A stretch of 64,000 nt of DNA from Clostridia bacterium (GCA_045648025.1 JAZRNH010000045.1:6682-70681); one strand, 5' to 3'; counted from the first letter of the stretch, positions 28,045-58,500 are shown. Notes: generated from the letters alone by a model not told the origin. Program-made: numbers and translations.

Positions 28045-31000
28045 ATGTCTTTCACTTCAATCACATTATTAGCATCAAAATTAATCGGAGCTCAAACTCT
28101 TGAACCAGGCGGTCTCGCTTTTGGTTCTCCTATTTTATGGCTTTTGACATGGGTTTGGGAAGGTATCTGCTTGGGTATTTATAACCTTGTTAGATGGCTT
28201 CTTGCAATTGTTGACTTTATGCAATACTTCATTCAGAAGCTTATTGGTTTAGACTATTGGCTCAACCGAACCTATTACACTTTGGAGGGTGCTATTGAAG
28301 CGGATTTGATTTTCGGATTCCTCTATAGCGAAACCGTTCAAAAAGTGTTTAGAGCAATGGTAGCTGTCTTTTTTGCACTTTTGATTATCTTCACAATTTA
28401 TGCAATCATCAGACAAGAGTGGAGATACATCATGGGTAAGGATTTCGGAAACGGAACCGGCAACTCAAAGACACTTATCTTCAGAGAGTCAATCAAAGCT
28501 ATTGCAATTGTTCTTATTTTCCCAATTGTTCTTATGATTGGTGTTATTTCAGCAAATGCTATCTTAGCTTCACTGATTAAAGCTCTCAACATTGACACCT
28601 CGTCAACACTGGGTGGTCAATTGTTCCAGATTGCTTCACAAAATGCGGTCAAGTATGAAAAGTATGCAAACGGTGGTGAGCGAACTTCAGTCTCCGACGA
28701 AGTTACATTCTACATCGATGATGATACGAAAAAATATATAACAATGTCCTCCGGCAGTGCTGATGCTACACTGGTTGATAGGGCAACGACCTACGAAGCA
28801 TTCCTCGAAAAAATATCAAATGCAACCAAATATACAGTAAACACAATGTTTGAAGAAGTTAACCCTTCAAAAGAATCTTCTTTCAATGGTTATTGTGCAA
28901 GACTTGTTAGAGATGGTGAACCATATTATGTCATGGTAAAATGTTCAGATGATGACAATGGAACAAATGGCAGATATGCAATGGGTTATTATCTCAAAAA
29001 TGTTCTTCAAGTAAAAGTTGTTACTTCTGAAGATTCTGCAGGTTTTGGTGGTGCAGATGATTTTTCTAACAAAATTGGAACCGATGGTTTTATTTCAAAC
29101 TTTAACTTAAAAGAATGTTATTCAGATGATATTGCTGATGCTTGTTATCACACTTGGAACTATGCAAGTATCTATGAAAGAACATTTGAATTCGAAGATG
29201 CAGAAGATTACCTTGTTACAAAGAGTGGTAACTCAATCAAGGTGACAATGGACGGTTCAACAGTTTCAAAGATTGGTGAAGGTCCAACATCTTCAGAATT
29301 AATTTCTGCACTTGGTCTTGGTGTAACAAATGCAAAAGTTATGTATAACTCAGACCAAATTTCACCTTATTTTGATGGTGGACAACATGGTGTTGTTCAA
29401 ATGCAAGCAGAGTATATGGTTATGTCAGAAGTTGTTAACTATATGGCAGAGAGTAACCTTAGACTTTATATGCTTGACATCACATCTGACCTTATTGACT
29501 GGGGTGGTCATGGAAGCTATTATGTAGATTCAAGATGGATTGGTTCAGATGACTCAGGAAATGTTAAATACTCAACACTTGTTGATGGTGGAAGCACAAA
29601 AACAACACTTCCATTTGTAATTTCTTACAATGACAACTGTAACGAAACAGAAATGGGAAATGTTTTATACTTTGGTGATAAAATTGCAAATGGCAACGAA
29701 ATCAAAGGTGCAAATTACATTATGTGCCTTAAAGTTGAAGGTATGAAAGACAATGCTGGCAATATGTTAAATGCAAAGTTTATTCCACTTGTAAATAACA
29801 AAACATTTACAGATCCATCAACTGGAAGTCAATATAACTTCAAATCAAACTATTATGCTTCAAACTACCGTGGTGTAGTTCTTGCAAAGGGTTTATTAGA
29901 TTCTGGTGCAACAAATGCATACCGTGGTGAACCAACATATTTGGTTAGCGGTGCAAAAACTGAAAAAGATAAGATTGCTGGTAAAGATATTCCATATTAC
30001 TTTGATATGGAAACAATTGGTGGATTCAACCAATTTGTTGAAGATAGTGGAACAGTTGTTATGAATGGCAACACCGTTGAAGGTCTTGAAGTTCCTCTTA
30101 GAGCAGCAAACTATTCATATAGTGTTTCAAAAGTATCTGGAGCAACAGATCATACTTATCAAATCAAAAAACATACTGCTGAGGAAGATGGCACAACCAC
30201 TACCACAGATCAGTCTGTAACCGAAGATATCATTAGAAACTTGCAGATTAATATGAAACTTTCAACTGGGGTTGTTTCGATTGGTTCATATGCTGGACAA
30301 TCTGTTTCTTATGGTTCAAAGGTATTCTACTTATTCACACATTTAAAAGGAGCTCAAGCATTCTACTTTGTTGTTTCTGCTGATAGCAGCAATGGACAAT
30401 TGCAATTGTATTCATACACAGCAAATAGCACAGAAGTTGTTGATGCAGCTAATCCAAACTTACTCTATTATGAATATGTTGATGGAGATGTTTGGAGTGT
30501 ATCATCATCAACAATCAGTTCAACTTCAAGATTCTACAAGATTATGTATGACTATAAGAGTTCAGTTGGAACTCCTATTGAATTGCTCGACAAAGTTGTA
30601 GATGCACAAGCAACTCCAAACTATTTTGATTATTCAAAATATTCAAATGGAAAAGCTGTTTATACAACAGTTGATATGCAAAGTATCAATGAAAGTGGTT
30701 TTTCTAAAACACTTTATGTTAATGGAACATTTAACACAACTTCTGCAACACTTATGAATCTTGGATTTGATGGTGAAGGAGTTCCTGCTGTTAGATATGC
30801 TGACCCATATGTTCCAGATTATCCTTCTAGCAATGTACATGATAAATTTGAATATAGAACAGACCATTCTGATTCAATTCAAAAATCAAAAATGGTAAGA
30901 TTCTATTTGTATGATTTCTATAATGCTTCTGTTGGTGGAACCATTAAGAAATATGATATTGATAATGACAGTTCTCCAATTTCTGGTTCAGAAAAACCAA

Positions 31001-41075: not shown

Positions 41076-43763
41076 ATGTCTAGAATGATTCCAAAATCAA
41101 CGAAAGTTAAAGTTCAATTCTTTAAAGGGTTTAACTTTTCGGATATTTTTGTAGTTTTATTTGCATTAATTATAGTGGCTCTTGCGATGACCACTTCTTT
41201 TGGCATTATTGCAAAATTAGTTATTTCAGGTATTACAGTATTCATTACTGCGGCTATGTTTATGAGCTTTGAACCAGGTGTTAGGTTATATAAACAAGTT
41301 GGTGACTTATTCAAATTTTTGTTTGGTATTAACACATACAAAAAAATGAAAGGCAACTCAAAAAGCAATGTTAAACAACTTTTGCCTTATGTTGGTATTT
41401 TAGAGCAAGAATACGATGAAAAACATCAAATCGGTATCATCGACTATAAAGAATATTTTGGTGCTGCTATCGAGGTTAACTCTATTCAATTCCATATGCT
41501 TTCTGAACAAAGACAAAATGCATATATTGAAACCCTTGAAAGTGCATTCAAAACAATTTCTGCAGAAGACCTTGGTGCGATTTATAAACTTCAAAGACCT
41601 ATGGTTTTTGATAATTACATCGACAACGAATGTAAAAAGAGAGAAGAAATTCTTGACTCAGTTCGTAACGGTTCAACAAATATTAACGAGGCTAGACCTA
41701 GACTTGAAATTGCCGAAGCTAGAATTAAGAACCTTGAAAACATGAATGTTGATAGTGAATTTCCTGTTTTTAAGGATCATATGTATATTGCTTTCTTCTG
41801 TACAAACATTAGAAACTTAATTCAAGTTGTAAACTTCGTAGCAAGTTCAATTGAAAGTGGTTCTGGTGGTTCAATTGAACCAAAGATTCTTGATAGAAAA
41901 CAAACTGCTATTTTCTTAAAGAGTTATTACACCACAAACTTTGACGAAAGAGAAATCAAAAACATCGATCCAAAAGATTTGATGGATTGGATTGCACCTG
42001 AAAAAGTTACATTTGGTATTAAAAGCTGTACCATTGACGGTAATGCTTATGCCTTATATGAACTTTCAGACTATCCACTTGCAGTTCCTAATGCATGGGG
42101 AAGAGCATTCTTCTCAGTGCCTGGTGCAAGAATATGTGTAAAATTTAAACCTGTTGAACAAGGTGAATCTGAAAAGCGACTTGATAGAGCCATTATGGAT
42201 ATCAGAATGCAAGCATCAGAAGGTAGTACAAAAGCCTCTGCGGTTATGGAAACACAAACTCACCTTGACACACTTACTGAACTTATGCAATACATTAAAC
42301 AAGGTTCAGAAATGCTCTTTGATACAAACATCTATATGATGATTGAAGCAGAGCAAAAGAAATCATTTAAAACACAAGTTATGAGAGCTGGTTTTAGAGT
42401 TTATGACCTTTTTGCAAAACAAAAAGAAGCATTTACAAACTGTAACATTTCTCGAAGAATGACAATCACAAGATTCGAAAGAGGTATCAACTCATCATCA
42501 CTTGCTGCTATATTCCCATTTGTTTCGGATGCTATTCAAGACCCTAAAGGTTTCTATGTTGGTATGAACAGTGAACCTGTATTCTTGGACTTCTTCCAAA
42601 GAGACAAAGAAAGAATTAACTCAAACATGGTTATCATGGGAAAATCTGGTTGCGGAAAGTCATTCTGTACCAAGTCAATCCTTGCTAACCTTGCTGCTGA
42701 TAACAGTAAAATCTTTATTCTTGACCCTGAAAAAGAATATGATATTATTGCTAGAAACATGTATGGAAAAGTTATCGATGTAGGTTCTGCTAGAGAGGGT
42801 AGAATCAATCCGCTTCAACCTAATGCTTCACAAGACGATGAAGATAGCGGCGGCGGAAATGTAGCTCTTGCCATGCACATGCAGTTCCTTGAAACCTTCT
42901 TTGGTATGATTCTTGATGGTATTACCATGGACGGTATGGAACTTTTGAACGAAGCTTTAAAAGAGCTTTATGCTAAATTTGGTATTAACAACTCAACCCA
43001 AATTGAAAAAGTTAAACCAGAACAATTCCCAATCATGCAAGACTTATATAACTATATTTGTGAAAAGCATGATAATGCTACTGACGACTATAACAGAAAC
43101 AACTATAAGATTTTAAAAATCTACTTAAACAAGTTTGCTGAAGGTGGTAGAAATGCTCAGCTCTGGAACGGCCCTTCAACAATTTCTTCAAAAGAAAACT
43201 TTATTGTATTTAACTTCCAATCACTTCTTGCTAACAATGCGGGTGCGGTTGCAAATGCACAGATGCTTCTTATCATGAGATGGCTCAATAACGAAGTTAT
43301 TAACAACAAAGACTATAATGCAAAGTTCCACACAAACAGAAAAATCATCGTCGTTATCGACGAAGCCCATGTATTTATCGATCCAAAACAAACTGTTGCT
43401 CTTGACTTCATGCAACAAATGGCTAAACGTATTCGTAAGTATGCGGGTTCACAAATTGTTATTACACAAAACATTAAAGACTTTACTGGTTCGCCTGAAA
43501 TCGCTAGAAAATCAACTGCGATTATCAATGCTTGTCAGTATTCACTCATTTTCGCACTTGCTCCTCAAGATATGAATGACCTTGTTATTCTTTATGAAAA
43601 AGCAGGTAAGATTAATGAAAAAGAACAAGATACAATTACAACCAACCCTAGAGGAAGAGCATTCTTGATGACTTCAACATATTCAAGAACCAATGTAGAT
43701 ATCCTCGTTAACGACAGGGTTCGTAACTTGTTCGAAAAACTTAGAGATGACATAAAAGTATAA
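41076..43763 (+). CDS. virB4: VirB4-family T4SS ATPase with N-terminal two-TM (VirB3-like) segment
   Basis: Walker A MGKSGCGKSF (42639-42662), FILDPEKEY, Walker B IVVIDEAHVF (43347-43370) and ITQNIKDF. N-terminal hydrophobic hairpin at aa ~20-66. GAGGAG RBS. Confidence 0.85.
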   Translation: MSRMIPKSTKVKVQFFKGFNFSDIFVVLFALIIVALAMTTSFGIIAKLVISGITVFITAAMFMSFEPGVRLYKQVGDLFKFLFGINTYKKMKGNSKSNVKQLLPYVGILEQEYDEKHQIGIIDYKEYFGAAIEVNSIQFHMLSEQRQNAYIETLESAFKTISAEDLGAIYKLQRPMVFDNYIDNECKKREEILDSVRNGSTNINEARPRLEIAEARIKNLENMNVDSEFPVFKDHMYIAFFCTNIRNLIQVVNFVASSIESGSGGSIEPKILDRKQTAIFLKSYYTTNFDEREIKNIDPKDLMDWIAPEKVTFGIKSCTIDGNAYALYELSDYPLAVPNAWGRAFFSVPGARICVKFKPVEQGESEKRLDRAIMDIRMQASEGSTKASAVMETQTHLDTLTELMQYIKQGSEMLFDTNIYMMIEAEQKKSFKTQVMRAGFRVYDLFAKQKEAFTNCNISRRMTITRFERGINSSSLAAIFPFVSDAIQDPKGFYVGMNSEPVFLDFFQRDKERINSNMVIMGKSGCGKSFCTKSILANLAADNSKIFILDPEKEYDIIARNMYGKVIDVGSAREGRINPLQPNASQDDEDSGGGNVALAMHMQFLETFFGMILDGITMDGMELLNEALKELYAKFGINNSTQIEKVKPEQFPIMQDLYNYICEKHDNATDDYNRNNYKILKIYLNKFAEGGRNAQLWNGPSTISSKENFIVFNFQSLLANNAGAVANAQMLLIMRWLNNEVINNKDYNAKFHTNRKIIVVIDEAHVFIDPKQTVALDFMQQMAKRIRKYAGSQIVITQNIKDFTGSPEIARKSTAIINACQYSLIFALAPQDMNDLVILYEKAGKINEKEQDTITTNPRGRAFLMTSTYSRTNVDILVNDRVRNLFEKLRDDIKV

Positions 43764-43788: not shown

Positions 43789-46700
43789 ATGGTTAGACTA
43801 TTTACATTTTTAATAAGTATATTTGAGTTTGAGCAGGGCTCTAGTTTTTTATCCATACCTTTATGGATAAAATTTATTGGAAGAGGTATTGCAAACTTAT
43901 TCAGCCAAATTATGAACTTCATTCTCAAAATGGCTTGGGTAATCATCAAGTTTATGCTTGGTGTTATGGAAGCCTTTGAATATATGATTAATTCATTTAT
44001 TGGCATTGATACTTCTGTTCAAGATATGTATGATTTTGTATATAATTCTGAAAACGGAATCAAACTTCTTGATGTACTTTCAACCTCACTTAAAGCTATG
44101 ATGGCTTTGAGTATCGTATTTTTAGTTATTTTCACAATTTTTGCTATGATTAAGCAAGAATATAACAATGCATTTAGCGGTGGCAAAAAAGGTAATGATA
44201 AAAAACCAATCATTACTGGTATGTTTAAGAAAATGTTGTATATTGTTTTACTTCCAATTACAATGATGTTCATCATTACTGGTGTTAACTCAATTTTAAC
44301 CTCATTTTCAAGAGCTATGACTGGCGGTGAAGATGTAACAATTGCAGCACAAGTGCTGTCAACATCAACATACGATTCAAACAAGTATCGTTATTATGCA
44401 CAAGAAAATAAGAGAATTCCAATTATCATTAAGGCATATGATCCAAATCAATATGCTCCAGATGAAAACGAACTTCTTGCAGAAAAGATTAAATCGGTTG
44501 CAGTTCAAGATGTTTTAAAAACAACCGTTTCTAGTATGTCAAGTAAGAACTTACTTACATTTAACGAAAGTGTACAATACAAAAACAACAAATTATCAAA
44601 TAGTGTTGAATATGGTCAAGGTGAATGGTATGAAACATTTATTTGTACTGCTGAGCAGTATCAAATTATGGCAGACTTCATCGATTATGCTCAAAAACAT
44701 AATTTAAAATACTATATTAAACCTACTGATTCAGAAGATATCGATTGGAGATATGTTGATTCAGCAGTCTTCAATGCCAGTGATATATCATTAAAAATCA
44801 ATTATCGTGATGCTAATGATATGAACGGCGATGGCAAAAAAACAGACTCTTATACAGTTGAATTTTCAACAAGTTTTGAAGTTACTTCACCAATCTCAAA
44901 TGCTATGGAAACAATCTTAGCACTTCTTGGTGTTGATAGCAAAAATGAAAAGTATTCTGAAAATATTTTCAAAACAATGGAAAGAGATGAAAACTATGTC
45001 AATGTTGTAAACTGGGCAAATGAAAAAGTTTTGATAAAACTTTCAAATGACTTTGACTTAGATGACCCTTCAAATTGGACAAGAATGGACCAACTCATAA
45101 TTTATGAGTATTACCATTTTTCTTCAAATAACACCTTCGGAAAGTATTCAATTGCTGACCTTGTTAAAGGTGTTGAACTTGAAGCAAGTCTTCTTGTATA
45201 TCGTGAATATTATCCAGTTGGAAATGCTTACTCAGAAGAGAGAACTATTCCTTGTGTAAAGATCAATGGTTCATATTATAGAATTTGGCAAGATCCAGAA
45301 GATCAAAAGACTGATAAATATGGCAATATTTATTATGAACTTGAAGATTCTTTAACAGAAGAAGACACACTCAATTTCTTAAATAATGATTATTCATTAA
45401 TTCAAGAAGTGGGAACTGAAACCGGAAAACTTAAACTTAGTGGTAACTTTGAAGCAAATGACCCAACCACTTGGGAATATTATGATCAAATTATTGTTTA
45501 TGAATTCTATAAAGATTTAACATCAAACAATAAACTTTATAGCTATAACTTCAATCAATTTAAAGAGGGTATTGAAGTTCCTGTTTATCAAATTACAAAG
45601 AGAAAATTCTCTGATAAAACAGTTGCTGATAGAGTTGATGATGAAACCGGTTATTATCTCGAAATCAATGGCATCTATTATGAGGCTACCAAAAAAACTA
45701 CTGGTAGTTCAAGTGATCCAGATTATGGAAAATGGTTCCTTAGTGATGCTACAATTGATTATTTAATAGAAGCAAATCCATTTAGTGATACATATTATTA
45801 TAACTATGAAATCAACCTTGATGGTGTGACTGATGGTGAAGGTGAATTTAATGATATTTATGGTGATAAATATGGTATTAGCACCAGCTTAGAATCAACC
45901 AAAAAAGCAACAAACTTTATTGTTGACAGAGATACAACAACAAGATATGTTGACTTCACACCACTTGATGAAAGTGATACTAATTTCTTAAAATACAGCA
46001 ACTTCTCATTAATGCTTTCTAAAAACTTTGACCATAACGAAGTTGATACTTGGACTTTTAAAGATTATTTCATTTTCTATTTATATATTAACTATAACCA
46101 AATTGCTGGAAGACTCGGACTAGAATCCCTTAAACTCACCGGTGTTAGTGGTGAAATCGGAACAATTGAACTTGAAGGAACATCTGCTACTAAGTATGTT
46201 TATAAAGTTAAATATGGTTCACACATCTTAACAACCGCAGATATTTATTGTGAACATTGTGGAAGATTCTACACAGAAGCTCAACTTGTTGATAGTAAAT
46301 GTCCTACCTGTGACATTAGAATTGATGACCAAGCAGGAAGAACTCTTGATTTATGTTTATATCTTGATATTGATGGTATTAGAAAGATTTCTAATATGCT
46401 CATTAACAATACACTTGATAGCACATATATCAAACAACACAACTATACAGATAAGGGTATTGGAAACACACTCTTTATTGATGTTGATTCAAATGATTTG
46501 GTTGTTGCAGACACAGAAGTTAGAGAGTTTAAACTCAGTGAAGGATTCAGCCAATTATATCCAAACAACTGGACCGTTTTAGATTATATTTTATATTCAT
46601 TTAGCAACGAAGGTGTTATTAATCAAATTCCAAAAGATGAGGCTGGAATTGAAAGTTATAAATACTCAGCTGTTGTTTATAAAATATTTGATGGCGAAGT

Positions 46701-49700
46701 TTTAAAAGATATAATGTATAAATTTGGTTCATCAACCAGAGGAAACGAACAATATTTAAGTTTAGAAAATGTCAAGGCATTGAAAGATGCAAATGGAGAT
46801 TCTTTAAACTATAGAGATGTTGATGACTTTTTGGAATTAAATTTCTTAGATTATGTTGCAAAAGCAAAAGGTATGCATTCTAATGAAATTATTTCTAACC
46901 AAGATGGAATTATTAACAACTTGTATAATGATTTGATTGAGTATGTTTACTCAACAGATAAAATCATGGAAGAGATTGTTAGACAAAAAGCATTCCATAT
47001 TGGTGCAAATGAATATGATTTATACAGCAGTGTATTATCATATACATATTCAAATCCATCTGTTAAGATTGATGATTTATCAACTTGGACATTGATGGAT
47101 GCATTAATTTATATTGCAACTGGAACTGTTAGCTTAACATATACAGCACCAGTTTATAGACATTTAAACAAAAATTACTTTATCGTTGGAAATTATGCTG
47201 TTGATATAACAACATCAACCAGTCCATTTAAGGGAACACTTTCAAGTGCAAACAAGATTACATCAAGAAATTCAACATTTGATGGTTCTGGACCACTTGC
47301 TGATTATGTTACAGCAAACTGTGCAGATTATATCTTTGATGAAGCTTACTTTACAGGCAAAAAGGTAAAGAAATATTCTAATGCTAGTTTCACATATAAA
47401 AATGAAGATACAGCATATACAACATTTGATGCAATATATGAATATTTAATGGGAACAGCAATTGCATTAGATGGAACTGTTTCATTAGATGCTTTCATTG
47501 AAGGGGAAAATGTTTATTTAAAAACAACAAAATCTGGTGTAAATAAATACATCTTAGTAAGCGAAGCATACAACGATTATATTTCTGTTGAAAAATCAGG
47601 AAAATTTACACTTTCAAGCACAGCAAAAATTGCAACAAAAGAACCAACTTCTTATGTTGCATTTGATAATGATCTTGATACAACAACATTTAATGCTGAC
47701 AATTTACATATTAAACCATTAGATGCTCTTATTTATTTTGATACTGGGGTAATCGAAAAGAAATCACTTAATGTTTATAAATATGTAAACAAAGACGGCA
47801 ATGAAAAGAAATATGTATATTCTGGAAAAGGATATATTGAAATTAAAGATAACAATGAAGTTAATATTATTAATTCAAGCTTAGACAACTTAACAAACTC
47901 TGACCATGAGTTATTAACTTTATTATATTCAACATATTATCAACAATATTATAAAACTGCTGTTGACAATATTCTTTCAGATGCAGTTGTTAAAAATGCT
48001 ACATTTGAATATGTTAGACCTGTTGACGGTGGTGGTATTCCAAAAGATGTAACAATCACAAGAGTTTCACCATTTGCATTAATCTTCTCAAAATTAGGTC
48101 TTATTGACTTAACATTGTCAAGAGATACCGTTACAGGAAAAATTGTTAGAACAGCAAGAAAAACTTACTTCTATTATGAAGGAACAACTGCAACTAGCAA
48201 TGAAGTAACAAAGATTTATGTTGATGTTACTGATATTGGAACTGTTGGTTATAAACCAGGTGATGAAACAAACTTATTCTTGTTTGACAACAATTCATCT
48301 GTTTATGAAATGGTTTTAAGATATATGCTTATGAGTAATTCAGATGGCGGTACTGGTTATTTGAATCAAAACACTTATGCTACAGCATATAAGACATTTG
48401 ATGCAGAACTTGAACCATATTTTGAAGATAACTATTTGGCTGCAGATGCAGTAAATACAACACTTTCAAATACATCTGGTTTCACACTTACAGCTGCAAC
48501 ATCTTGGACTAATTTCAACACACTTTATTACTATTTAACAAATTCATCTAATATCTCAACAATGCAAAACATATATACAGATAAAGATGGATATATGTAT
48601 GTAAAAATTCAAAAGAATAGTGATGTAACTTATGTTAAAGTTGGTAAAGATGGAAGTTATTATACAAACACATTGTTTGATCATTATACTTTTGCATCAG
48701 CAGCTTATCAACTTGAAGATGCATCAACTGGAAATTATAGTCCACTTGGAATTATTGCTTATAAACAAACTGCAATAAAAAATGGAACTATTCAACTTAT
48801 TACTTATGCAGAAAACTTCTGTCCAACTTGTGTTAGAGAATTGTCATCTGGTCAAGTAAATGCAGATAAAGAATGTACTACTTGTCATACAAAGGTTATT
48901 CCAACACAATTCCATTTTATTAAAAATAACTATTATGATGAATTTATTTGTGTTTATAACTTAGACAATGCTTCACTTAGAAATGCAACATCTTATGATA
49001 ATTATTATTACAATTTTAGAGGCGACACAGATGCAAATGGAAATTCAATTGTAAAGGACTGGACAATTTTTGATTATTTGATTGCTTATATCAATGCATA
49101 TAGCAAAGAATATAAGGTTTCTCAAAATATTCAAATTTATGGTTCAAATGCATACATTTCTGTTGATGGTTCTGATAATGGCAAATTTATCAACTTGTCA
49201 AAACTTGGCATTTTGTCAGAAGATGATGTTAATGATATTTATGATTCTGTTGGATATGATAAACTTGCATCAAGGCCATCAGGATATAGTGGCTCATATA
49301 ATTCATCTGCAGTTGAGGCTTTATATAATGAAAAATATGCAAGTTTGGTAAAAACATCAACACAATTAGATCTTGCAAATATTAATGTTTATAATCCAAA
49401 AGCTAGTGAAACAACAATCAAATATATTAAATCAGAAGAAGTTACCGCATTTGATATTATTTATTCAAAACTTAAAGGGGTAGGTTTTGCGGCAAATAAT
49501 AGTGAAATTGAAGTATCAACATTTGTTGATATTACCAGCGGAACAAAATATATTTTAATTGAAAAAGATACAACAGATTATTATGTTGCTGTTGGTGAAG
49601 ATCTTTACTTTGGTTCAGCTAATCCTGATATGATTGAACTTGAAGTTAATTTAAACCCAGTGTTTGATTATGTTTCAACAGGTGCTTATGATGTTTTTGA

Positions 49701-52700
49701 TGATGATAGAAAAGCATCTAGTCCTGTTCCAGGAATTGGTGATATTGACAAAGTAAGTTTCTCATCATATTTCCAAATTAATGATTATTCAACTTGGATG
49801 CTTTCAGATTTTGTAATTTATTACATATTTAATGAAAGTCCAGAACAATTTAATATTGATGGAAATCTTGATTCAACAAAGAACTTCCAAGAACTTGTTA
49901 ATAAGGGATATTCTCCAGCTAAAAATTATAAATACTTCATTGAAGATGAATTTGGAAATTCAATCTTAAAAGATGTTATTTGGATTGGTATTGGAGAAAA
50001 AGATGATGGTATTGCTGTTGACAGAACATTATTCACAAAATATTATGCTCAACAACTTGCTAACATTCAATTCTTAGATAAAACCTCTGTTGATTATAAA
50101 ACTTATAATTATGATAAGGGTATTGAACTTTCAATGGATTTTGGTGCAAATCAAAAGTTTACAACACAATCTATCAAGCAGTTCTATACCACAAAGAATA
50201 CTGTTTTAAATGCAAATCAATTCACTTATGACAGTTATTATTATTATGATTTAGACAGTGGAAAGCTCACACAAACAGACAATAACCTTCTTAGTGTTAA
50301 TGCAAACTTGATGAGTAATATTGCAGATGGAAAGGCAACTGTTTCAGATGCTCTTAACATTGCACTTTCAGACGGCTTTATTATTAGTGAGCCATCAACA
50401 TGGACATGGCTTGACTATATTATTGTTTATGAATTTTCAAGAACAAATATAAGACATAACTATTTTGAAGGTATGGCTTTTGAAAATCTTAGAACAAAGA
50501 GTTATGTTCCTGTGTTTATTGATGGTTCTGAAATTGTTATTGAGCTTAACGGAAGATATTATGATTTATCCGTAATTAAGCATGACACAGCCGCAACAGA
50601 CAAACTTACTCAAATTAGAAATAGTTATAAACTTATGAACGACACAACTGTTAGCGATGCCGTTACATTAAAGGCAGATGGTGATAATGGATTTGATTTC
50701 AAGACATTATATCAACAATTTGAGTATAATGTTCAAAAGAGTGAATATTCATTAGATTATTCAAAAACACCAAACAGCATTTTATATGAATATGCTGATC
50801 CAACTGATCCTTATGCAGATCAAATTATGTATTATATGACACTTAACACAGATATCATTGATACATATAAGGTTAACATTGCATCTCTTAACACAAATGG
50901 TTTCTATGCATTCACCAACATTGTTAGAGAAGTTAGTTGGCCACAAAAATTAATGAATGACCTTCAAGTGTTATATCCAGATTTGAACTGGGCAACACTT
51001 ATTGCTACTGATGGTTGGCTTGATACTCTTGGAGAATTTACATCAGCACAAGCTTCTGGGGAATATGTTTCTGAGGGCAACTCAGCAAACATTACAGCTG
51101 CTGGTTTGGTTCTTTCAGAATTCTTTGTATCAGTTGCCAAAGAAATGGATCCATTTGCATCAGTTCATAGCTATGAATATCAACCAATATTTAGTGAATC
51201 AACAATCAAGGCATTAATGCTTGCTATGCTTGGTGAAGAACAATATTATGATTTATCAACACAAGCTTCAGTATTTATTGAAATGTTTAACAATATGTTC
51301 TTGCCAGTGCTTGAAGATATTGCAAAAGAGAGAGGAATTTCAATTGTTGATGGAAAAGTTGATAACTTCTATATCAGTGTTTATAAAGCATATCTTGCAA
51401 CTGTTCTTTTAGGTTCAGATATTGGCGAATATTTCTATAAGATTGCAACAAGAGTTTATGCTCAATATACAATCTTTGATTCACTTGCAGCTGCAAGTGG
51501 TGACTATGCTGCTTATATGGATTATATTAATTCATTAAGCAATCAAAATGGTGAAAAAGTAACATCGTTTATGTATTCATCATTCCACGAACTTGCTATT
51601 TATGAAAACAGCTTCTCTGGAAACAAAAACCCAACATTTACATATAACTTTGAATCTTCACTTGCATATTTCTATGGCAAAAACTTCACATACGGAAAAT
51701 TGGCAGGGGAAGGCTATGATTTATCGGGTGTTCAAGATAAGACAAGCAATGATGCTATTGTTACTGCAAGAGATGTCAAAACAATTATGAAAAAGGCATC
51801 AAACTTTAACAACCTCAACAAACGTATTGATGACACTTATAGAGATATTTATAGCAAGGGTGGAAGAGTTAGTGATACTAATGTAAGTGGTATTTATTGC
51901 TTTATGTTTGATGTTTATTGGTCAATTCATCAAGTTGTTCAAGGCAAAAATCAAAACGATCCAGTTTACTTAGAGTATTATCGTGAATATATTATGGGTG
52001 AAGTAAAGAGATGGCAAACCGTTGCTAACGAAACAATTGACGGAACATCATCTTATATTCCAGATAACTCAAAATATAAATTAGCACTTAATATCAACAA
52101 AATCTTTGCTATGACATCTGTTGTTGGTCTTTACCTTCCAGATGGAAAGAGTATTGATGTTGAAGAAGAAGGCAGTTTATTTGATAAAATTAATTCAGCA
52201 TTAGATAGTGCTTCAATTACAAATGTAGGTGTTATTACTGACACATTTAATAACACAACAGCTTATACAGAATTCAAGAGAGCTTATAACAATGTATTTG
52301 GTCAAGGCCAAATTATGAACATCTCTGACATTATGGATGCTTCAAATGAAGGTAATACCGACAAATGGCATCAATTAGTTCAAATGAGAGATGATCTTGG
52401 AATCTTGGTTGAAGAATTAAACCAAGTTGCAAGTATGTCTGGTGAAGGCTATGTTAAAGGTGACTCAACAAGAGGTTACCGTGCACCAAGATATGACAAA
52501 GAAAGATATACTGATGCTTATAATGATTTGCAATCTTTGTATGGTTATATTGATACATACATTTCAAACCAAATTATTTTGGATAAGATCACAAAATCAA
52601 GTATCACATTTACTCTTGCTCAATTTGGTAAAAACTATGTAACTGATGGTTATACATTCTCATTCGAAAATAAGTCTTACACAATGAAGGCAACAGCTTC

Positions 52701-55494
52701 TGCTGAAAGACTTGCTGAATATGTTTATGGTGGTGCATTCCTTGTTAAATATGGTGTATCTCCAAAATATACAAATGACAAGTATCACGGATTTGTTGAA
52801 AGTTATAAGGTTTATGATTCAAATTCTGGTTCAACAAAAACTAGACTTAAAGTTTGGACAGAACTTAGAACATTTGTTTCTGAACTTGCAAACTATACAG
52901 CAAAATTATATTACTTAAGTAATATGAATGACCTTTCTAAAAATATTAGTGATGGCATTTTATTAACAGATACCATTTATCAAGGAAACTCTGATGATGG
53001 CGGCACACTTGTTTCAAAAACATTAGAGCAAATGATTATTGAATATTTGCTCACTAGTGAAATTGAAGCAGATACATTCTTGAGATTATCATTTGGTGAC
53101 ACTGTTGCAACACTTGATGCATTAAGTTGTCCAAATGATGAATTTAAAGCACTTGCATATTATCTTGAAGGTAATTATGCTGGTGATGACGGTGTTGTTG
53201 AAAAAACTGGATATGGTGACTACATTATTGATATTGGCGAAGGTGATGCAGCTGTTAGATTTACACTTACAGGTGCAAATAAAAAGGCATACATCAAAAA
53301 CTATTGGGATTATGTTGGAAGTTCAGCATATAACTCAAATGGTTATTATAATGATGGTTCAAACAATGGTGTTGATAGATTACACCTTATCTTCAAAAAG
53401 ATAATTTCATATTTGATTGTTACTGAAGAGGCAGAAGAATCAACTTCTGAAAAAGCAATTAATCTTGATAATATCACATTTAAAGAATTTAGAAAGATTT
53501 TAATGCAAGCTCTTAGTGATTATCAAAAGAACCCAACAGAAAATGATATTCAAAATTCAAACAGATATATCACATTATTCAACTTAATTAGTTCACAATT
53601 TGCTTACACATATAGTTATACAAATGATGATGGTGAAACTATTCATGTTCAAGCTGGAACAACTGTTAACCCATTATTTGTTTCAAAAGTGAATCCAGAT
53701 ACAGGATCAGCTATTGATAAAAACATTTCTGCAAAAACTGCTGGAAGAGTAAATTATGTTTATGAAAATCCATCAGGTATTAAAGAAATAAGACCTCTTT
53801 ATGGTGAATTTTCTATTGATATTCCAACAAGAGATATCATTTTAACATTAGCTGGAATTGAAAACCGTCCAATTGAAGAACTTGTTGGTCTTGAATATGA
53901 AAGCCTTTATGATAAAGGTGGAAACTATGACGAAGAAGATGGTGATACATTCATTATTTGTTCATATGACGAAAGTGAAGGAAAGTATTATCCAGTTCTT
54001 GGAAGAAATACCGGTTGGAGTGTTTCTGATAAAGGTTTTGATTATATCGACAACATCGGCATTGATATTAAAACATCTTATTATGCACCAGATGGACATT
54101 ATCCAATCATTGCAAAAGGTGTAATCGATGCTTCGGGTTATCCAACCGCAATCAAACAGGTTGACGGAAAGATTTTATTCTATAGAACAAATATCACAAC
54201 TGCACAAGATGTCGGCGAAAGTGCTTTGGGTCAAACAAGAAGCGGTGGTGAAGTTACAACCATTGGATATACAAAATATACCACTGGTTTCTGGTCTGCT
54301 ATCGGAAACAGTGATAAAGTTGCTATGTTCACTGGAAACTCTTCAATTGACTCAATGGCAAATTCTGATTTCCAAGTTAATTTCATTCAAACGACACAGC
54401 AATATTCAATCACAAATGCTGAAGATTTTGAATCAATTGCAGTTCTTGAAGAATTTTCTGCATTCTATACACTTGAATCAAGACAATTGTTCTTATTCTT
54501 GCTTGGTTTCTCAGTGTTACTTCCAATGCTCTTTAGTGCATCTGCAACGGTTCTTAGAAGAATTCTAGATCTGATATTCTTGGTGTTGATGGGTCCAATG
54601 GCGATAGCTTCGCTTTCACTTGGAGCTGATCAAAATCCAGATGGAAAGAGTAAGATTTTTGATACCTGGAAAACCTATATGACTCAGACACTGCTTCATG
54701 TGTTTGGTTATATCATTGCATTTAATGTATATTCAATTTTGATGTCAACAATTCTCAAGATGGATCTTGTTGGTCAAAGCACAATGGATGCAATTTATAG
54801 AATCGGTGGCTTATCACAATTTGTTACTGAAAATAGTATTAATGCACTTTTAAGATATGTTTACATTATTGCTGCGGCTGCTGCAATTAAAACATCAGCC
54901 GACCTTCTTGTTAACATTGTTACTGCTGGAAAAGTTACCAATGCATTCCAAACACCAATGGGCGGAGATGTTATGGCTGACATTAAGAAAATGGCAGAAC
55001 AACTCAAAGATGCATTTGATGCGGTTAAAGGTATTGCTAGTGGACAGGCTGCAACAATGCTTAAAGACTTTGCTATGGAAACGGCTATGAAAGCGATTCC
55101 TGGTGGAGCACTTATTGGCAAAGCGGTCAATGCTGGTCAAAACCTGATTTCACAACAAAAAGGTAAAGCCTTAGAAAAATCGGCAATTTCAAACGGAGTT
55201 TCACCAGAAGTTGCTAAGAGTATGTCAAAACAATTTGTTGACAACGAAATGAAACAAAGACAAGCCAAGAGAGAGCAACGAGCTGCAAATGCTAACCAAT
55301 TCTCTAAGACATTTGGAGGCGATGCAATGTTTAAGGCACAAGAAAACGGTGCACTTACAAAGCGACAACAAGCCGCAAAGAAAGAGGATGCAGCAGCAAA
55401 GAAAAAAGCTGGAAAAGCAGGAAAAGCTGCAAAAGGAAGCAAGGGCAGTAAAGGTGGCTCATCAAAGGGCGGAAAGAAAAAAGGTAAAAAATAA
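43789..55494 (+). CDS. giant (3901 aa) polytopic membrane protein, paralogue of the 4301-aa protein. Has a ~3350-aa Tyr/Asn/Asp/Thr-rich modular ectodomain and a short Lys/Gly-rich tail.
   Basis: Uninterrupted 11,706-nt ORF starting 25 nt after the virB4 stop, with an AGGAGA RBS. The N-terminal 3-helix module and the C-proximal TM module (aa ~3565-3720) align by eye with the other two proteins. Confidence 0.6.
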   Translation: MVRLFTFLISIFEFEQGSSFLSIPLWIKFIGRGIANLFSQIMNFILKMAWVIIKFMLGVMEAFEYMINSFIGIDTSVQDMYDFVYNSENGIKLLDVLSTSLKAMMALSIVFLVIFTIFAMIKQEYNNAFSGGKKGNDKKPIITGMFKKMLYIVLLPITMMFIITGVNSILTSFSRAMTGGEDVTIAAQVLSTSTYDSNKYRYYAQENKRIPIIIKAYDPNQYAPDENELLAEKIKSVAVQDVLKTTVSSMSSKNLLTFNESVQYKNNKLSNSVEYGQGEWYETFICTAEQYQIMADFIDYAQKHNLKYYIKPTDSEDIDWRYVDSAVFNASDISLKINYRDANDMNGDGKKTDSYTVEFSTSFEVTSPISNAMETILALLGVDSKNEKYSENIFKTMERDENYVNVVNWANEKVLIKLSNDFDLDDPSNWTRMDQLIIYEYYHFSSNNTFGKYSIADLVKGVELEASLLVYREYYPVGNAYSEERTIPCVKINGSYYRIWQDPEDQKTDKYGNIYYELEDSLTEEDTLNFLNNDYSLIQEVGTETGKLKLSGNFEANDPTTWEYYDQIIVYEFYKDLTSNNKLYSYNFNQFKEGIEVPVYQITKRKFSDKTVADRVDDETGYYLEINGIYYEATKKTTGSSSDPDYGKWFLSDATIDYLIEANPFSDTYYYNYEINLDGVTDGEGEFNDIYGDKYGISTSLESTKKATNFIVDRDTTTRYVDFTPLDESDTNFLKYSNFSLMLSKNFDHNEVDTWTFKDYFIFYLYINYNQIAGRLGLESLKLTGVSGEIGTIELEGTSATKYVYKVKYGSHILTTADIYCEHCGRFYTEAQLVDSKCPTCDIRIDDQAGRTLDLCLYLDIDGIRKISNMLINNTLDSTYIKQHNYTDKGIGNTLFIDVDSNDLVVADTEVREFKLSEGFSQLYPNNWTVLDYILYSFSNEGVINQIPKDEAGIESYKYSAVVYKIFDGEVLKDIMYKFGSSTRGNEQYLSLENVKALKDANGDSLNYRDVDDFLELNFLDYVAKAKGMHSNEIISNQDGIINNLYNDLIEYVYSTDKIMEEIVRQKAFHIGANEYDLYSSVLSYTYSNPSVKIDDLSTWTLMDALIYIATGTVSLTYTAPVYRHLNKNYFIVGNYAVDITTSTSPFKGTLSSANKITSRNSTFDGSGPLADYVTANCADYIFDEAYFTGKKVKKYSNASFTYKNEDTAYTTFDAIYEYLMGTAIALDGTVSLDAFIEGENVYLKTTKSGVNKYILVSEAYNDYISVEKSGKFTLSSTAKIATKEPTSYVAFDNDLDTTTFNADNLHIKPLDALIYFDTGVIEKKSLNVYKYVNKDGNEKKYVYSGKGYIEIKDNNEVNIINSSLDNLTNSDHELLTLLYSTYYQQYYKTAVDNILSDAVVKNATFEYVRPVDGGGIPKDVTITRVSPFALIFSKLGLIDLTLSRDTVTGKIVRTARKTYFYYEGTTATSNEVTKIYVDVTDIGTVGYKPGDETNLFLFDNNSSVYEMVLRYMLMSNSDGGTGYLNQNTYATAYKTFDAELEPYFEDNYLAADAVNTTLSNTSGFTLTAATSWTNFNTLYYYLTNSSNISTMQNIYTDKDGYMYVKIQKNSDVTYVKVGKDGSYYTNTLFDHYTFASAAYQLEDASTGNYSPLGIIAYKQTAIKNGTIQLITYAENFCPTCVRELSSGQVNADKECTTCHTKVIPTQFHFIKNNYYDEFICVYNLDNASLRNATSYDNYYYNFRGDTDANGNSIVKDWTIFDYLIAYINAYSKEYKVSQNIQIYGSNAYISVDGSDNGKFINLSKLGILSEDDVNDIYDSVGYDKLASRPSGYSGSYNSSAVEALYNEKYASLVKTSTQLDLANINVYNPKASETTIKYIKSEEVTAFDIIYSKLKGVGFAANNSEIEVSTFVDITSGTKYILIEKDTTDYYVAVGEDLYFGSANPDMIELEVNLNPVFDYVSTGAYDVFDDDRKASSPVPGIGDIDKVSFSSYFQINDYSTWMLSDFVIYYIFNESPEQFNIDGNLDSTKNFQELVNKGYSPAKNYKYFIEDEFGNSILKDVIWIGIGEKDDGIAVDRTLFTKYYAQQLANIQFLDKTSVDYKTYNYDKGIELSMDFGANQKFTTQSIKQFYTTKNTVLNANQFTYDSYYYYDLDSGKLTQTDNNLLSVNANLMSNIADGKATVSDALNIALSDGFIISEPSTWTWLDYIIVYEFSRTNIRHNYFEGMAFENLRTKSYVPVFIDGSEIVIELNGRYYDLSVIKHDTAATDKLTQIRNSYKLMNDTTVSDAVTLKADGDNGFDFKTLYQQFEYNVQKSEYSLDYSKTPNSILYEYADPTDPYADQIMYYMTLNTDIIDTYKVNIASLNTNGFYAFTNIVREVSWPQKLMNDLQVLYPDLNWATLIATDGWLDTLGEFTSAQASGEYVSEGNSANITAAGLVLSEFFVSVAKEMDPFASVHSYEYQPIFSESTIKALMLAMLGEEQYYDLSTQASVFIEMFNNMFLPVLEDIAKERGISIVDGKVDNFYISVYKAYLATVLLGSDIGEYFYKIATRVYAQYTIFDSLAAASGDYAAYMDYINSLSNQNGEKVTSFMYSSFHELAIYENSFSGNKNPTFTYNFESSLAYFYGKNFTYGKLAGEGYDLSGVQDKTSNDAIVTARDVKTIMKKASNFNNLNKRIDDTYRDIYSKGGRVSDTNVSGIYCFMFDVYWSIHQVVQGKNQNDPVYLEYYREYIMGEVKRWQTVANETIDGTSSYIPDNSKYKLALNINKIFAMTSVVGLYLPDGKSIDVEEEGSLFDKINSALDSASITNVGVITDTFNNTTAYTEFKRAYNNVFGQGQIMNISDIMDASNEGNTDKWHQLVQMRDDLGILVEELNQVASMSGEGYVKGDSTRGYRAPRYDKERYTDAYNDLQSLYGYIDTYISNQIILDKITKSSITFTLAQFGKNYVTDGYTFSFENKSYTMKATASAERLAEYVYGGAFLVKYGVSPKYTNDKYHGFVESYKVYDSNSGSTKTRLKVWTELRTFVSELANYTAKLYYLSNMNDLSKNISDGILLTDTIYQGNSDDGGTLVSKTLEQMIIEYLLTSEIEADTFLRLSFGDTVATLDALSCPNDEFKALAYYLEGNYAGDDGVVEKTGYGDYIIDIGEGDAAVRFTLTGANKKAYIKNYWDYVGSSAYNSNGYYNDGSNNGVDRLHLIFKKIISYLIVTEEAEESTSEKAINLDNITFKEFRKILMQALSDYQKNPTENDIQNSNRYITLFNLISSQFAYTYSYTNDDGETIHVQAGTTVNPLFVSKVNPDTGSAIDKNISAKTAGRVNYVYENPSGIKEIRPLYGEFSIDIPTRDIILTLAGIENRPIEELVGLEYESLYDKGGNYDEEDGDTFIICSYDESEGKYYPVLGRNTGWSVSDKGFDYIDNIGIDIKTSYYAPDGHYPIIAKGVIDASGYPTAIKQVDGKILFYRTNITTAQDVGESALGQTRSGGEVTTIGYTKYTTGFWSAIGNSDKVAMFTGNSSIDSMANSDFQVNFIQTTQQYSITNAEDFESIAVLEEFSAFYTLESRQLFLFLLGFSVLLPMLFSASATVLRRILDLIFLVLMGPMAIASLSLGADQNPDGKSKIFDTWKTYMTQTLLHVFGYIIAFNVYSILMSTILKMDLVGQSTMDAIYRIGGLSQFVTENSINALLRYVYIIAAAAAIKTSADLLVNIVTAGKVTNAFQTPMGGDVMADIKKMAEQLKDAFDAVKGIASGQAATMLKDFAMETAMKAIPGGALIGKAVNAGQNLISQQKGKALEKSAISNGVSPEVAKSMSKQFVDNEMKQRQAKREQRAANANQFSKTFGGDAMFKAQENGALTKRQQAAKKEDAAAKKKAGKAGKAAKGSKGSKGGSSKGGKKKGKK
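45061..50439 (+). repeat. ten or more divergent copies of a protein-level module marked by [LS]S..F...[DE]P[ST].W[TE]..D..I.Y.[FY]
   Basis: Motif copies at 45061, 45457, 46036, 46558, 47071, 47701, 48499, 49051, 49780 and 50386. Examples: DDPSNWTRMDQLIIYEYY, NDPTTWEYYDQIIVYEFY, SEPSTWTWLDYIIVYEFS. Spacing is 132-266 aa. Confidence 0.75.
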
Positions 55495-55520
55495 AACTTA
55501 ACGAACAGGAGAGAAAATAG

Positions 55521-58500
55521 ATGGGGTTAATTAATATGGCGACAAAAATTCCAACTTTAATGATGAAGTTATCTTCATCTATTTTCCCGACCGGTTCTTC
55601 AAGTTTCTTGGCGGCAGCGGGAACGGATTCGTTCTTGTCGGTGGTATTCAACTTTTTAGCCAAAATTTTCTATTTTGCGGCTAAATGGATGTTATATCTG
55701 CTTGATATTTTGTATGCATATATAAAAGAACTTTGCGGTCTTAATATGAGTTATGAGTCTTTAGAAAAAATGGTTTCAAAAGAATCTGACTTTGTATTTA
55801 ATCTTTTGATTACATCAAGAGAAACAATTACTCCAATTATTAAAAGTTTAATAGGTCTTGTTATTGCACTGGTTATTTTCTTTGCAATTTTAGCGGTTAT
55901 TAAAACCACTTTCAATTCAATAAAACAAGGTGCAACAGCAGACATTAAGGGTGTATTTAGAAACACATTTAAAGCATTTATCTTGCTTGTTATTACACCA
56001 ATGCTCGCAATTGTTGGTATTGTTGCTGCAAACACAATCTTAAAGACATTATATAATGCAACAAACCCTTCAGGTTCGACAAGCATAAGCACTCAGTTGT
56101 TCTCAGCTTCTGCAACATCTGCTAGTAGTTATCGAATATATGCTCAAAATGGTTTAAAAATTCCGATAACTTATGATTTTACCGAACAAGAAACAATTTT
56201 AGAATATTATCAAAATCATCCACTTACTGATGATTTTAGAGAATATGTTGTTTCCGACAAAAACCTTATATATACAAATTATAAAAGGTTGCAAGACGGA
56301 AATTTTGATGAATTTATATATCTTAACGATGCCATTTCTTCTGGAACAGGTGTAACAGAAAGTTATGTAACAAGATATTATCAAGCTTATGATAGACATG
56401 CTGAATCTGTTAAACCAGTTTCTCCATATCATGCATATAAGAGAATTCAGGCTTATAGATCAGAATATCTTGTTATGGCAGATGTTATTGATTATTGTAT
56501 AAATTCAGGCAATACTCTTTATTTAAAAACAATACAAGAAGTTCTTGATTCTATAGCTGCTGTGCCAGATGACAGTGTGTTTGAATCATTTGTAACATTG
56601 TTTGATATTGAATTTTTAACAGCAGATTTAAAAACTTATGTTTTGAGTTCGATTGTAACAACTAATGCAGATGATGTAAACAGCACATACAACTCGTACA
56701 AACAAATCTATAATCACGATAGTTGGGAAATTATTAGATTTAACAGCACATATTATGATGCAAACGAAAGCACTGAGCCTACAAGAAAAATGGTTATTCA
56801 ATATAACCATGTTAAAGATGCTACAGATGAACTTGATGGTGCAAAGTATATAGTTGCTAGTGAACAAATTAAAACCGTTTATGATGCTTATTCAAGCAGA
56901 GATAAACAATATCCTTATTTCTATCCAATAACTCTTGGTTATGGAACTGGAAGTGGTGGTGCATTTGATACAGACTTTATTCAAATGGGTCAAATTGTTG
57001 CTGCAAAAGGTATTTTCAGCGAAGGAAAATATCCAACAGCAATTAGACAAAGTGATGACAAAGCTGAACTTCAATTTTATAGAGAGACAATCTCACAAGT
57101 AAATGTGGGTGATGAAAGTGGTATGGCTGGAGGCTCTCTTGCAACTGAAGAAAAGAAGAGTGGTATTGCTGGATTCTTCCAAAAACTTAAAGCAATGTTT
57201 AGCCCCAAAGTTAATTTAAGTGTTGACGAAAATGCGGTTATAACGGCTTATGGTATTGAAGAAGTTCAAGTCAATATTTTAACGGCTGGTAAACTTAATA
57301 TTAGCTATATGTTCTCAGATGCAATATCAAACGGTCTTGGCGGTATCATGACTGCTGCTTCAAGAGCAGTGTCTGGTCAAGACAATGTTGAACAAATTGG
57401 TATCTTTGGATTAAACTTAGATAACTTATTCATACCAAACAAACTTAATATATTAGTTCTTATTGTTGGTGCATTTGTAATGATTAAAATCACTTTCCAA
57501 GCGGTTTTTGCACTTATTAATAGGTCTTATGAACTGTTCTTAACGATTATAGTTTATCCAACGGCCTGTGCAACAATTCCTCTTGATGAAAATGGTTTCC
57601 AACAGTGGACGATAACTTATACCCAGCGACTGTTCTCAACATACGGTCTGATTCTGGGTCTGAACTTCGTTATTATGTTGTTCCCAATAATCAGTGAACT
57701 TGAAGTGTTTACGGCGGGTGAAATTGCACTTTCTAAACCTTTGATGAGATTTAGAAATCTGTTCTCACTTGGTGGACTGATAACGATTAGTTTGGAATTT
57801 TTGGCAAGTTTCTTAAACCTTGTTGTTGTAATTTTATTTGAACTTGTTGCATTTACACTTCTTGAAACAATTCCAGAAACAATTTCAAAAATCACAGGTG
57901 TTTCTGCAGCTCAAGGCTTCGACCCAATTGAAGCTATGGGTAAGGTTTTGAATGTTATTATGGGTGTTGTTAAAACCGTCGGCTCAAGTGGTTCGGGTGT
58001 AATTTTAGGTATATTCGATGTCCTTGGTGCATTTGTAGGTTCTAAAAAGTCAAGAGATAAAGCAAAGCAAAGAATTAAGCAAAAGGTTAAAGATAAAACT
58101 GACAAGCTTAAAAAAGGTGCGAAATCAATGATTCCTGGTAAAGGTCTTGTTGATTCAATAAAAGATAAGCAGCATGTAAAACAACAAATGGGTGCTCAAA
58201 AAGAAGCTATGAACAAACTTAAAGATGCTATGGATAACAAAGATAGTGATCCAAAAGCTGTTCAAGATGCTATGAGCAATTTGTTACAAGCTCAACAAAA
58301 AGCAACTGCTGCAATTAATGACCCTTCTGGTTCAAGAGCTGCGGCTGAATCTGAAAAGAAACAAAATGAAGAGGCGGGTCTTGATGAAGATGGCGAAGTT
58401 TCTTCAAGAGAAGGTGAAGAGAACGATGACCAAGAAGGAGCAGATCTTTCACATAGATCAAAGAGTTCTTTGAAGAAAGAAAAGAAGAGAGCGAAGGCTG

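Follow-up and report, generated by a model that had tools for sequence, protein, structure and literature searches.

The locus described here raises the question of what three giant membrane proteins encoded in one gene cluster are, and which machine they may belong to. The stretch analyzed, hereafter the window, comprises 64,000 nucleotides (nt) from a Clostridia bacterium (GCA_045648025.1, JAZRNH010000045.1:6682-70681) with ~30% GC, in which open reading frames (ORFs) were called with translation table 11. The ORFs of the three proteins, designated G1, G2 and P3, are all intact under this table (up to 4301 amino acids, aa). A first-pass annotation had described them as paralogues that share two membrane modules on a channel-like scaffold with very different insertions, and had proposed a test against the TrbL/VirB6 proteins. 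VirB6 is the least understood conserved subunit of type IV secretion systems (T4SSs). The role of its "extended" forms is unknown (PMC12857230). We consider it likely that G1, G2 and P3 are ancient paralogues of a VirB6-like subunit, belonging to a minimal T4SS of the type found in Mycoplasma integrative and conjugative elements (ICEs), which the host lineage has kept as a chromosomal machine. The parts of the three proteins are given below in window coordinates, with E-values (E; iE, independent E-value) of the supporting BLASTP, NCBIfam and hidden Markov model (HMM) matches; TM denotes transmembrane helices.

28045..40950, plus strand: G1, candidate VirB6-like paralogue, 4301 aa, whole ORF (NF045848 E 3e-22, NF045889 E 2e-11; G1-like clade support 0.96)
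28105..28719, plus strand: G1 N-module, aa 21-225, with the N-terminal helix, TM1, TM2 and the start of the outer loop (NF045848 positions 9-188 by HMM coordinates; BLASTP to P3 5e-22, to G2 9e-15)
28720..31461, plus strand: G1 insert in the TM2-TM3 loop, ~915 aa, without a Pfam family
29401-29904, plus strand: G1 aa 453-620, homologous to the P3 ectodomain (P3-family HMM, iE 6.8e-7)
31462..31974, plus strand: G1 C-core, aa 1140-1310, with TM3-TM5 and the motif R..P..ATIPLDEGQKF..W (NF045848 positions 184-315; BLASTP to P3 7e-31)
32092..32145, plus strand: G1 post-core motif FLPGGVLAKKAVDAGKGA, of the form ΦPG[GSK]xΦ
31975..40947, plus strand: G1 C-terminal tail of ~2990 aa, a charged, helical stretch in which Gly/Ala-rich hydrophobic repeats occur at ~aa 3100-3330 (sequence and hydropathy)
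43789..55494, plus strand: G2, candidate VirB6-like paralogue, 3901 aa, whole ORF (NF045848 E 9.5e-10 on the C-core)
43849..44460, plus strand: G2 N-module, aa 21-224 (BLASTP to G1 9e-15, to P3 2e-14; P3-family HMM over aa 17-314 at 1.4e-29)
44461..54435, plus strand: G2 insert of ~3325 aa in the TM2-TM3 loop; homology to the P3 ectodomain covers its first ~90 aa and its last ~120 aa (P3-family HMM)
54436..54945, plus strand: G2 C-core, aa 3550-3719, more diverged than the other two cores (NF045848 positions 155-312, E 1.4e-10; BLASTP to P3 2e-11, to G1 0.003)
55093..55146, plus strand: G2 post-core motif AIPGGALIGKAVNAGQNL, of the form ΦPG[GSK]xΦ, also seen by BLASTP
55521..59585, plus strand: P3, candidate VirB6-like paralogue, 1354 aa, the most compact form, whole ORF (NF045848 E 1e-20; 44 orthologues at 27-97% identity)
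55596..56195, plus strand: P3 N-module, aa 26-225 (NF045848 positions 50-188)
56196..57395, plus strand: P3 ectodomain, ~400 aa, mixed alpha/beta (AlphaFold2 predicted local distance difference test, pLDDT, mostly 75-90 over aa 200-530)
57396..57920, plus strand: P3 C-core, aa 626-800 (NF045848 positions 184-318)
58131..58148, plus strand: P3 post-core motif IPGKGL (ΦPG[GSK]xΦ scan; P872 is invariant among 26 aligned P3-family sequences)

The relationship of the three proteins was examined by BLASTP with compositional matrix adjustment. The N-modules matched one another at E of 5e-22 (G1/P3), 9e-15 (G1/G2) and 2e-14 (G2/P3), and the C-cores at 7e-31 (G1/P3; 32% identity over 336 aa), 2e-11 (G2/P3) and 0.003 (G1/G2). 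When the translated ORFs were read, every peptide block quoted in the first-pass annotation was found at the coordinates it had given. The same annotation had allowed that the similarity could reflect generic transmembrane hydrophobicity and nothing else, and had asked for a compositional control. Two types of shuffled sequences were used for this purpose: full shuffles, and shuffles within 10-aa windows that keep the hydrophobic segments in place. The N-module pairs scored z = 23-29 against the former and z = 10-18 against the latter, and the C-core pair G1/P3 scored z = 34 and z = 20, respectively. The C-core pairs that involve G2 gave z = 5.4-9.5, with the G1/G2 pair at z 5.6-6.6. In cross-controls, N-modules compared with C-modules scored 34-51, which is the level of shuffled sequences, while true pairs scored 76-270. 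In addition, a six-frame search of the organism's 1.42-Mb assembly with the curated profile NF045848 returned five matches, all of them within G1, G2 and P3. The E-values together with the shuffle controls indicate that the similarity is homology and not generic membrane composition, as the annotation had proposed, including its view that the G2 core is the more diverged. Hydrophobicity as the sole explanation, to which the low score of the G1/G2 core pair lends something, was rejected on the BLASTP, genome-search and shuffle results, and we give it practically no credence. By BLASTP, the G1/G2 core pair is the sole weak one, and the profiles rescue its pairing.

The NCBIfam scan matched the C-core of all three proteins to NF045848 (MMCAP2_0566 family conjugal transfer protein, 322 positions) and to NF045889 (Mbov_0396 family ICE transmembrane protein). 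The N-modules of G1 and P3 fall on the N-terminal half of NF045848 and the C-cores of all three proteins on its C-terminal half, at the positions listed above. G1 and P3 therefore cover the full profile collinearly, and the N-module of G2 is tied to it through its ~1e-14 homology to the other two. The giants are not contiguous polytopic proteins of ~300-320 aa, as the domain is interrupted and their lengths are 1354-4301 aa. In other Clostridia, short relatives of 460-580 aa match NF045848 contiguously, for example P0189 over positions 4-319 at E 1e-51, and their TM2 and TM3 are linked by an acidic loop of ~70 aa. By HMM coordinates, the same loop holds an insert of ~400 aa in P3, ~915 aa in G1 and ~3325 aa in G2. 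Hydropathy analysis revealed 2-3 helices in the N-module and 3 in the C-core, and AlphaFold2 placed long helices at matching positions. Judged from these alignments, the two modules are the N- and C-terminal halves of a single known domain of ~320 aa, split in the TM2-TM3 loop. The conserved scaffold with insertions of the earlier description was thus retained, while its two modules were not independent units (NF045848 positions 9-188 and 184-318).

The short relatives also carry other assignments. Their C-core gives a match to NF045890 (pLS20_p028 family conjugation system transmembrane protein; P0189 aa 184-333, E 2e-16), which links the family to the Bacillus plasmid pLS20. P0189 and its relatives, as short contiguous members, further carry the precomputed Pfam accession PF26635.1. 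PF26635 was not mentioned in the literature searched, and it is possible that its name already describes this family.

The regions between and after the modules had been called unalignable, which proved only partly right. An HMM built from the P3-orthologue family also matched G1 453-620 (iE 7e-7), G2 17-314 and G2 3430-3752, and these matches take in a YxVMADxIDY helix and an AKG..YPTAI..FYR block, both visible in the BLASTP alignments. Based on these ectodomain matches, G1 and G2 look like P3-type proteins with a further inflated ectodomain. The motif that the first-pass annotation had noticed just after the core in G1 and G2 is real and occurs in P3 as well: ΦPG[GSK]xΦ lies 36-77 aa past the core in 48 of 88 family members, compared to 0.9% of background windows. 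The G2 insert keeps 36-50% identity across the genus. An AlphaFold2 model of P3(1-860) had a pLDDT of 68.6, and when it was searched with Foldseek against PDB chains, the ectodomain fold had no significant match (best E 0.28). The ectodomain itself was modelled with long beta-hairpins at a pLDDT mostly of 75-90; this lack of a PDB match for a confidently modelled region suggests that it may be an undescribed fold.

The tail of G1 is a separable module. In two related species, the G1 orthologue comprises just 2185-2304 aa and is followed by a separate ORF of ~1040 aa with weak similarity to the G1 tail (21-24% identity; L053, 42-9739, and L073, 9875-19909), which points to gene fusion or fission. 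Within the G1 tail, Gly/Ala/Thr-rich hydrophobic segments (K.GLAATAGILTVASGGTLIPALLA..) recur in a charged context at window positions 37360-38630 (aa ~3100-3530), and hydropathy flagged aa 3107-3126, 3212-3238 and 3305-3323. It is possible that these segments form membrane hairpins, which would alter the tail topology predicted below.

Whether this domain is a form of VirB6 was addressed by profile and structure comparison. Pfam scans of G1, G2 and P3, as whole proteins and as isolated modules, found no credible family. Among 46 diverse C-cores of the family, TrbL_4 (PF19597) was the only recurrent Pfam match, in 4 of the 46 and below threshold (best E 6e-5); P0189 matched it at E 6e-4, and the short family member L086 reached 27.2 bits, with the gathering cut-off at 27. 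Comparison of the family with 23 TrbL_4 proteins by hhalign gave 93.4% probability and E 2.6e-7 over 159 collinear columns, spanning TM1 to the R..[DE]..P..P.D.G.F..W motif. Three alternative alignments gave 80-90% probability, and all runs fell between E 2.6e-7 and 1.3e-5 over 159-170 columns. An AlphaFold2 model of P0189 (pLDDT 82.6) was then searched with Foldseek against 350,542 PDB chains. Its top matches, 8rtd_L, 7o3v_J, 8rt9_F and 7o3v_G, had a probability of 0.94-0.99, a TM-score normalised to the target (TMt) of 0.37-0.47 and E of 0.08-0.3, with the best three (8rtd_L, 7o3v_J, 8rt9_F) at TMt 0.37-0.46 and E 0.076-0.087. Ten of the 16 top matches were chains of the R388 stalk complex or DotA, and no other match reached a probability of 0.5. 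We take the R388 stalk-complex chains to be TrwI/VirB6, presuming this from the chain length of 260-272 residues. All three giants are polytopic, with at least five hydrophobic helices, and are encoded in a T4SS cluster beside VirB4. In Mycoplasma ICEs, CDS16 has been called "likely the VirB6-like component" (PMC12857230) and is required for ICE transfer (PMC6030558). Taken from these profiles and models, VirB6 homology of the family is probable, not proven. The proposed TrbL/VirB6 test was thus borne out by the profile-profile match, and not by any direct Pfam TrbL match of the giants; the best fold matches of P0189 may point to VirB6 as well. The term "channel-like" was an assumption, as the solved VirB6, R388 TrwI, is a pentameric platform and not an open channel (PMC12857230).

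The modules could instead be a lineage-specific membrane anchor unrelated to VirB6/TrbL, the matches being coincidences of helical bundles and the proteins surface fibres or adhesins that lie beside T4SS genes. This would agree with the giants lacking a direct Pfam TrbL match, with Foldseek E-values that all exceed 0.05 and with PDB sequence searches, using the C-core profile and the TrbL_4 profile, in which nothing was found. However, the hhalign alignment runs collinearly and takes in a shared charged/proline motif beyond the hydrophobic stretches, the R388 and DotA chains stand out among all PDB chains searched, and in Mycoplasma ICEs, where CDS16 is needed for transfer, the family takes the place of VirB6, with pilin on one side and VirB4 on the other. 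We therefore regard an unrelated anchor as quite improbable.

The further members of the cluster are listed here.

41076..43763, plus strand: VirB4-type ATPase with N-terminal TM helices (NF045975 VirB4_plasma, 594 bits, cut-off 590; PF19044 8e-19)
26908..27740, plus strand: two T4SS pilin-like genes of 104 and 115 aa (PF18895 1.4e-5 and 2e-4; NF045849, Mbov_0395 pilin-like, 9e-5 and 3e-9; all four under the curated cut-offs)
24641..26605, minus strand: VirD4-type coupling protein (PF02534 1e-43; NF045973 252.7 bits, cut-off 250)
22324..24597, minus strand: 757-aa membrane-anchored surface protein, co-oriented with VirD4 (syntenic across the genus, orthologues of 30-39% identity in the equivalent position)

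Two pilin genes, G1, VirB4, G2 and P3 form a co-oriented cluster with short gaps (125 nt between G1 and VirB4, 25 nt between VirB4 and G2, 26 nt between G2 and P3), alongside which lie the divergent VirD4 and surface-protein genes. The neighbourhood, with genes of the Mbov_0395 pilin-like and Mbov_0397 VirB4 types, matches the gene order of Mycoplasma ICEs. The remainder of the window consists of housekeeping genes (greA, holB, tatD, ksgA, comEC, holA, rpsT, murI, lspA, rluD and tig), with the cluster fixed between rpsT/murI and lspA/rluD/tig, and no integrase, transposase or relaxase was found in the window.

Loci related to this one occur in metagenome-assembled genomes of uncultured Clostridia from the guts of sheep, goat, deer, rabbit, mouse and human. 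Each of the 20 other genomes sampled from the genus had NF045848 matches, usually in three proteins of ~900-1500, 3300-4100 and 4000-7483 aa, as did all 16 sampled genomes of the family's other genera (500-2300 aa). Overall, 36 of 36 sampled family genomes carry the protein family, compared to 4 of 24 from the order's other families, there as short contiguous forms. A search with the core profile of 1.84 billion representative proteins returned 2151 clusters at 50% identity, the best 150 of which range from 278 to 7309 aa. Across the genus the gene order orf477, rpsT, murI, surface protein, VirD4, pilin, pilin, G1, VirB4, G2, P3, lspA, rluD, tig is kept. Within the genus, identity to the window's protein is 85-97% for VirB4 and 74-87% for the trigger factor; it is about 40-70% in the TM modules, 33-50% in the ectodomains and 26-35% in the tails. 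In a tree built on the de-inserted TM domains, the giants are monophyletic apart from the short forms (support 0.93), and G1-type (0.96), P3-type (0.75) and two G2-type groups (1.0 and 0.93) each extend across several genera; 19 loci have both a G2-type and a P3-type gene. As each paralogue type spans genera, the triplication predates the radiation of the family. Family-wide presence, housekeeping synteny, VirB4 conservation and the tree all point to vertical inheritance of the locus, and the machine appears to be fixed in the chromosome in a family of uncultured gut Clostridia with small genomes.

A decaying remnant of an integrated conjugative element, with the giant ORFs as passenger adhesins or decaying genes that retain anchor helices, would share its parts list with Mycoplasma ICEs, as this locus does. 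Such an origin would also suit the sporadic occurrence of short, contiguous, above-cut-off members in the order's other families, as expected of mobile elements, and the lack of a relaxase partner among the three families searched. In contrast, all ORFs are intact (up to 4301 aa), the chromosomal site is identical across the genus, the protein family is present in every sampled genome of the host family, VirB4 is more conserved than the trigger factor and three paralogue types are kept across genera. Decay was rejected as the principal explanation on this conservation and synteny, and we hold it to be very improbable.

Several results weigh against the assignment of the giants to an ancient, host-kept VirB6-like family. 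None of the three proteins reaches the curated cut-offs: for NF045848 (90 bits) the whole-protein scores are 79.2 for G1, 74.3 for P3 and 38.2 for G2, and for NF045889 (70 bits) they are 43.7, 39.4 and 24.2, respectively. When the two half-domain hits to NF045848 are summed, G1 obtains 92.3 bits and P3 88.3 bits. The giants match neither Pfam TrbL nor TrbL_4 directly, the Foldseek E to VirB6 is only ~0.08 for P0189, and the P3(1-860) model reaches the same entries at a non-significant E of 2.4-4.6. Profile and fold searches readily give spurious matches with helical membrane bundles. The tree leaves the monophyly of the G2-type proteins unresolved. Lastly, the relaxase families PF03432, PF02486 and PF01076 gave no significant match in the genome, a result that covers three families in a 95% complete genome.

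With the VirB6-like reading preferred, the proteins were compared with known systems. They resemble CDS16 of Mycoplasma and Spiroplasma ICEs in that the halves of its profile match the N-modules of G1 and P3 and all three C-cores in order, with a pilin-like gene upstream and an Mbov_0397-type VirB4 adjoining. However, CDS16 is a contiguous protein of ~310 aa on a mobile element with a DDE transposase. In the present locus, loop inserts of 400-3325 aa interrupt the domain, tails of up to ~3000 aa follow it, and all three copies score under the curated cut-offs; the bacteria are walled Clostridia in which the locus has a fixed chromosomal position, with no transposase or integrase in the window. 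The similarity to TrbL_4 extends from TM1 to TM4 in the profile-profile match (93% probability), and that to R388 TrwI/VirB6 (PDB 7O3V, 8RT9, 8RTD) includes the location beside VirB4 and may include the fold, as the best matches of the short relative are chains presumed to be TrwI, although there is no above-threshold sequence match and TM-scores are only about 0.45. In addition, TrwI lacks a large loop insert or tail and functions together with VirB5 and an outer-membrane complex, both absent here.

Extended and multiplied VirB6 proteins are already known from Rickettsiales, and the CDS16 family is curated. In Rickettsiales, the extended VirB6 paralogues comprise RvhB6a-e and, in Anaplasma and Ehrlichia, VirB6-1 to -4 (PMC7648143, PMC12857230), with Anaplasma VirB6-4 of 4322 and 9935 aa (PMC7648143); MPF-FA systems also have VirB6 proteins, of 700-900 aa (PMC12857230). 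The Rickettsiales set provides the closest analogues, with several tandem paralogues in a chromosomal T4SS of a reduced-genome bacterium and giant hydrophilic extensions; here these reach up to ~3300 aa for the loop and up to ~3000 aa for the tail. Those bacteria belong to another phylum and have a diderm envelope, and the extensions described there are C-terminal, in contrast to the main insert in the TM2-TM3 loop, plus tails, found here. The giants cluster with short forms from Bacillota, which suggests an expansion independent of Rickettsiales, and the likeness, compared by description only, is best read as parallel evolution. Patescibacteria (Saccharibacteria) likewise represent a monoderm small-genome lineage with a chromosomal T4SS and VirB2-like pilin genes, and in Southlakia epibionticum the chromosomal T4SS is essential for growth on the host (PMC12857230). 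That locus adds VirB1-, VirB3- and VirB8-like parts and six pilins, and a triplicated giant VirB6 has not been reported there. In the literature we found no description of the present system in Clostridia, nor of its combination of a loop-split CDS16/VirB6 domain, three ancient giant paralogues and a chromosomally fixed, apparently relaxase-less T4SS with pilin-like genes, conserved in a reduced-genome gut Clostridia family. The TANB77 pilin paper (PMC11680825) was considered as a match and set aside, as its pilus is a Tad-type system and not the present locus.

Based on the positive-inside rule and the helix counts, the predicted topology has a basic, cytoplasmic TM1-TM2 loop, the insert outside, three long helices and lysine-rich tails inside. 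We propose that the ancestral unit was a contiguous protein of ~320 aa with an N-terminal helix, TM1, TM2, an outer loop of ~70 aa and TM3-TM5, the latter carrying the motif R..[DE]..L...P...P.D.G.F..W. Its TM2-TM3 loop would have gained a P3-like ectodomain, further inflated in G1 (~915 aa) and G2 (~3325 aa), and tails of 180 to 2990 aa would have been added past the conserved ΦPG[GSK] motif. By analogy with the R388 VirB6 pentamer, the three paralogues may assemble on the VirB4 ATPase as a membrane platform, with the differing ectodomains projecting through the wall as a contact or conduit part. The basic tails would lie on the cytoplasmic side and could contact the ATPases or the substrate there. 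The host lineage may have retained such a machine to serve its own cell-to-cell transfer or uptake and not the spread of a mobile element.

A bolder version, which we find rather doubtful, is that this family of gut Clostridia with genomes of 0.8-1.6 Mb domesticated a Mycoplasma-ICE-type conjugation machine as a core cell-surface organelle. The three giants would then form a heteromeric platform whose loop ectodomains, and not a pilus or wall parts of the VirB8/VirB1 type, span the wall and dock partner cells, and a dependent, possibly epibiotic, way of life like that of Saccharibacteria would require the organelle.

The family offers a natural series on one scaffold, from short forms of ~320 aa through P3-type proteins of ~800-1500 aa to giants of 2000-7000 aa, and, as the insertion point is mapped to one loop, the platform and the add-on parts can be tested directly. 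If the assignment is right, VirB6 multiplication and inflation would have occurred outside Rickettsiales too, again in reduced genomes with a chromosomal T4SS, which points to a general route from conjugation machine to host-owned interaction organelle. Human and livestock guts commonly contain these uncultured bacteria, and a conserved surface machine of 35 kb provides a good lead to their lifestyle.

Three minor observations concern the neighbouring genes. VirB4 starts with two hydrophobic helices (~aa 25-66; window 41076-41300), and NF045975 covers it from residue 5 onwards; like the Mycoplasma-type enzyme, it thus seems to carry a fused VirB3-like membrane segment. The 757-aa surface protein, encoded directly downstream of VirD4 on the minus strand, had no Pfam or NCBIfam match; it carries hydrophobic anchors at its N- and C-terminus and probably belongs to the T4SS. 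A gene for a ComEC-type competence channel of 513 aa lies 4.5 kb upstream of the T4SS locus (16311-17852; PF03772 5e-50), and at E <= 1e-5 its product contains only the DUF4131 and Competence domains.

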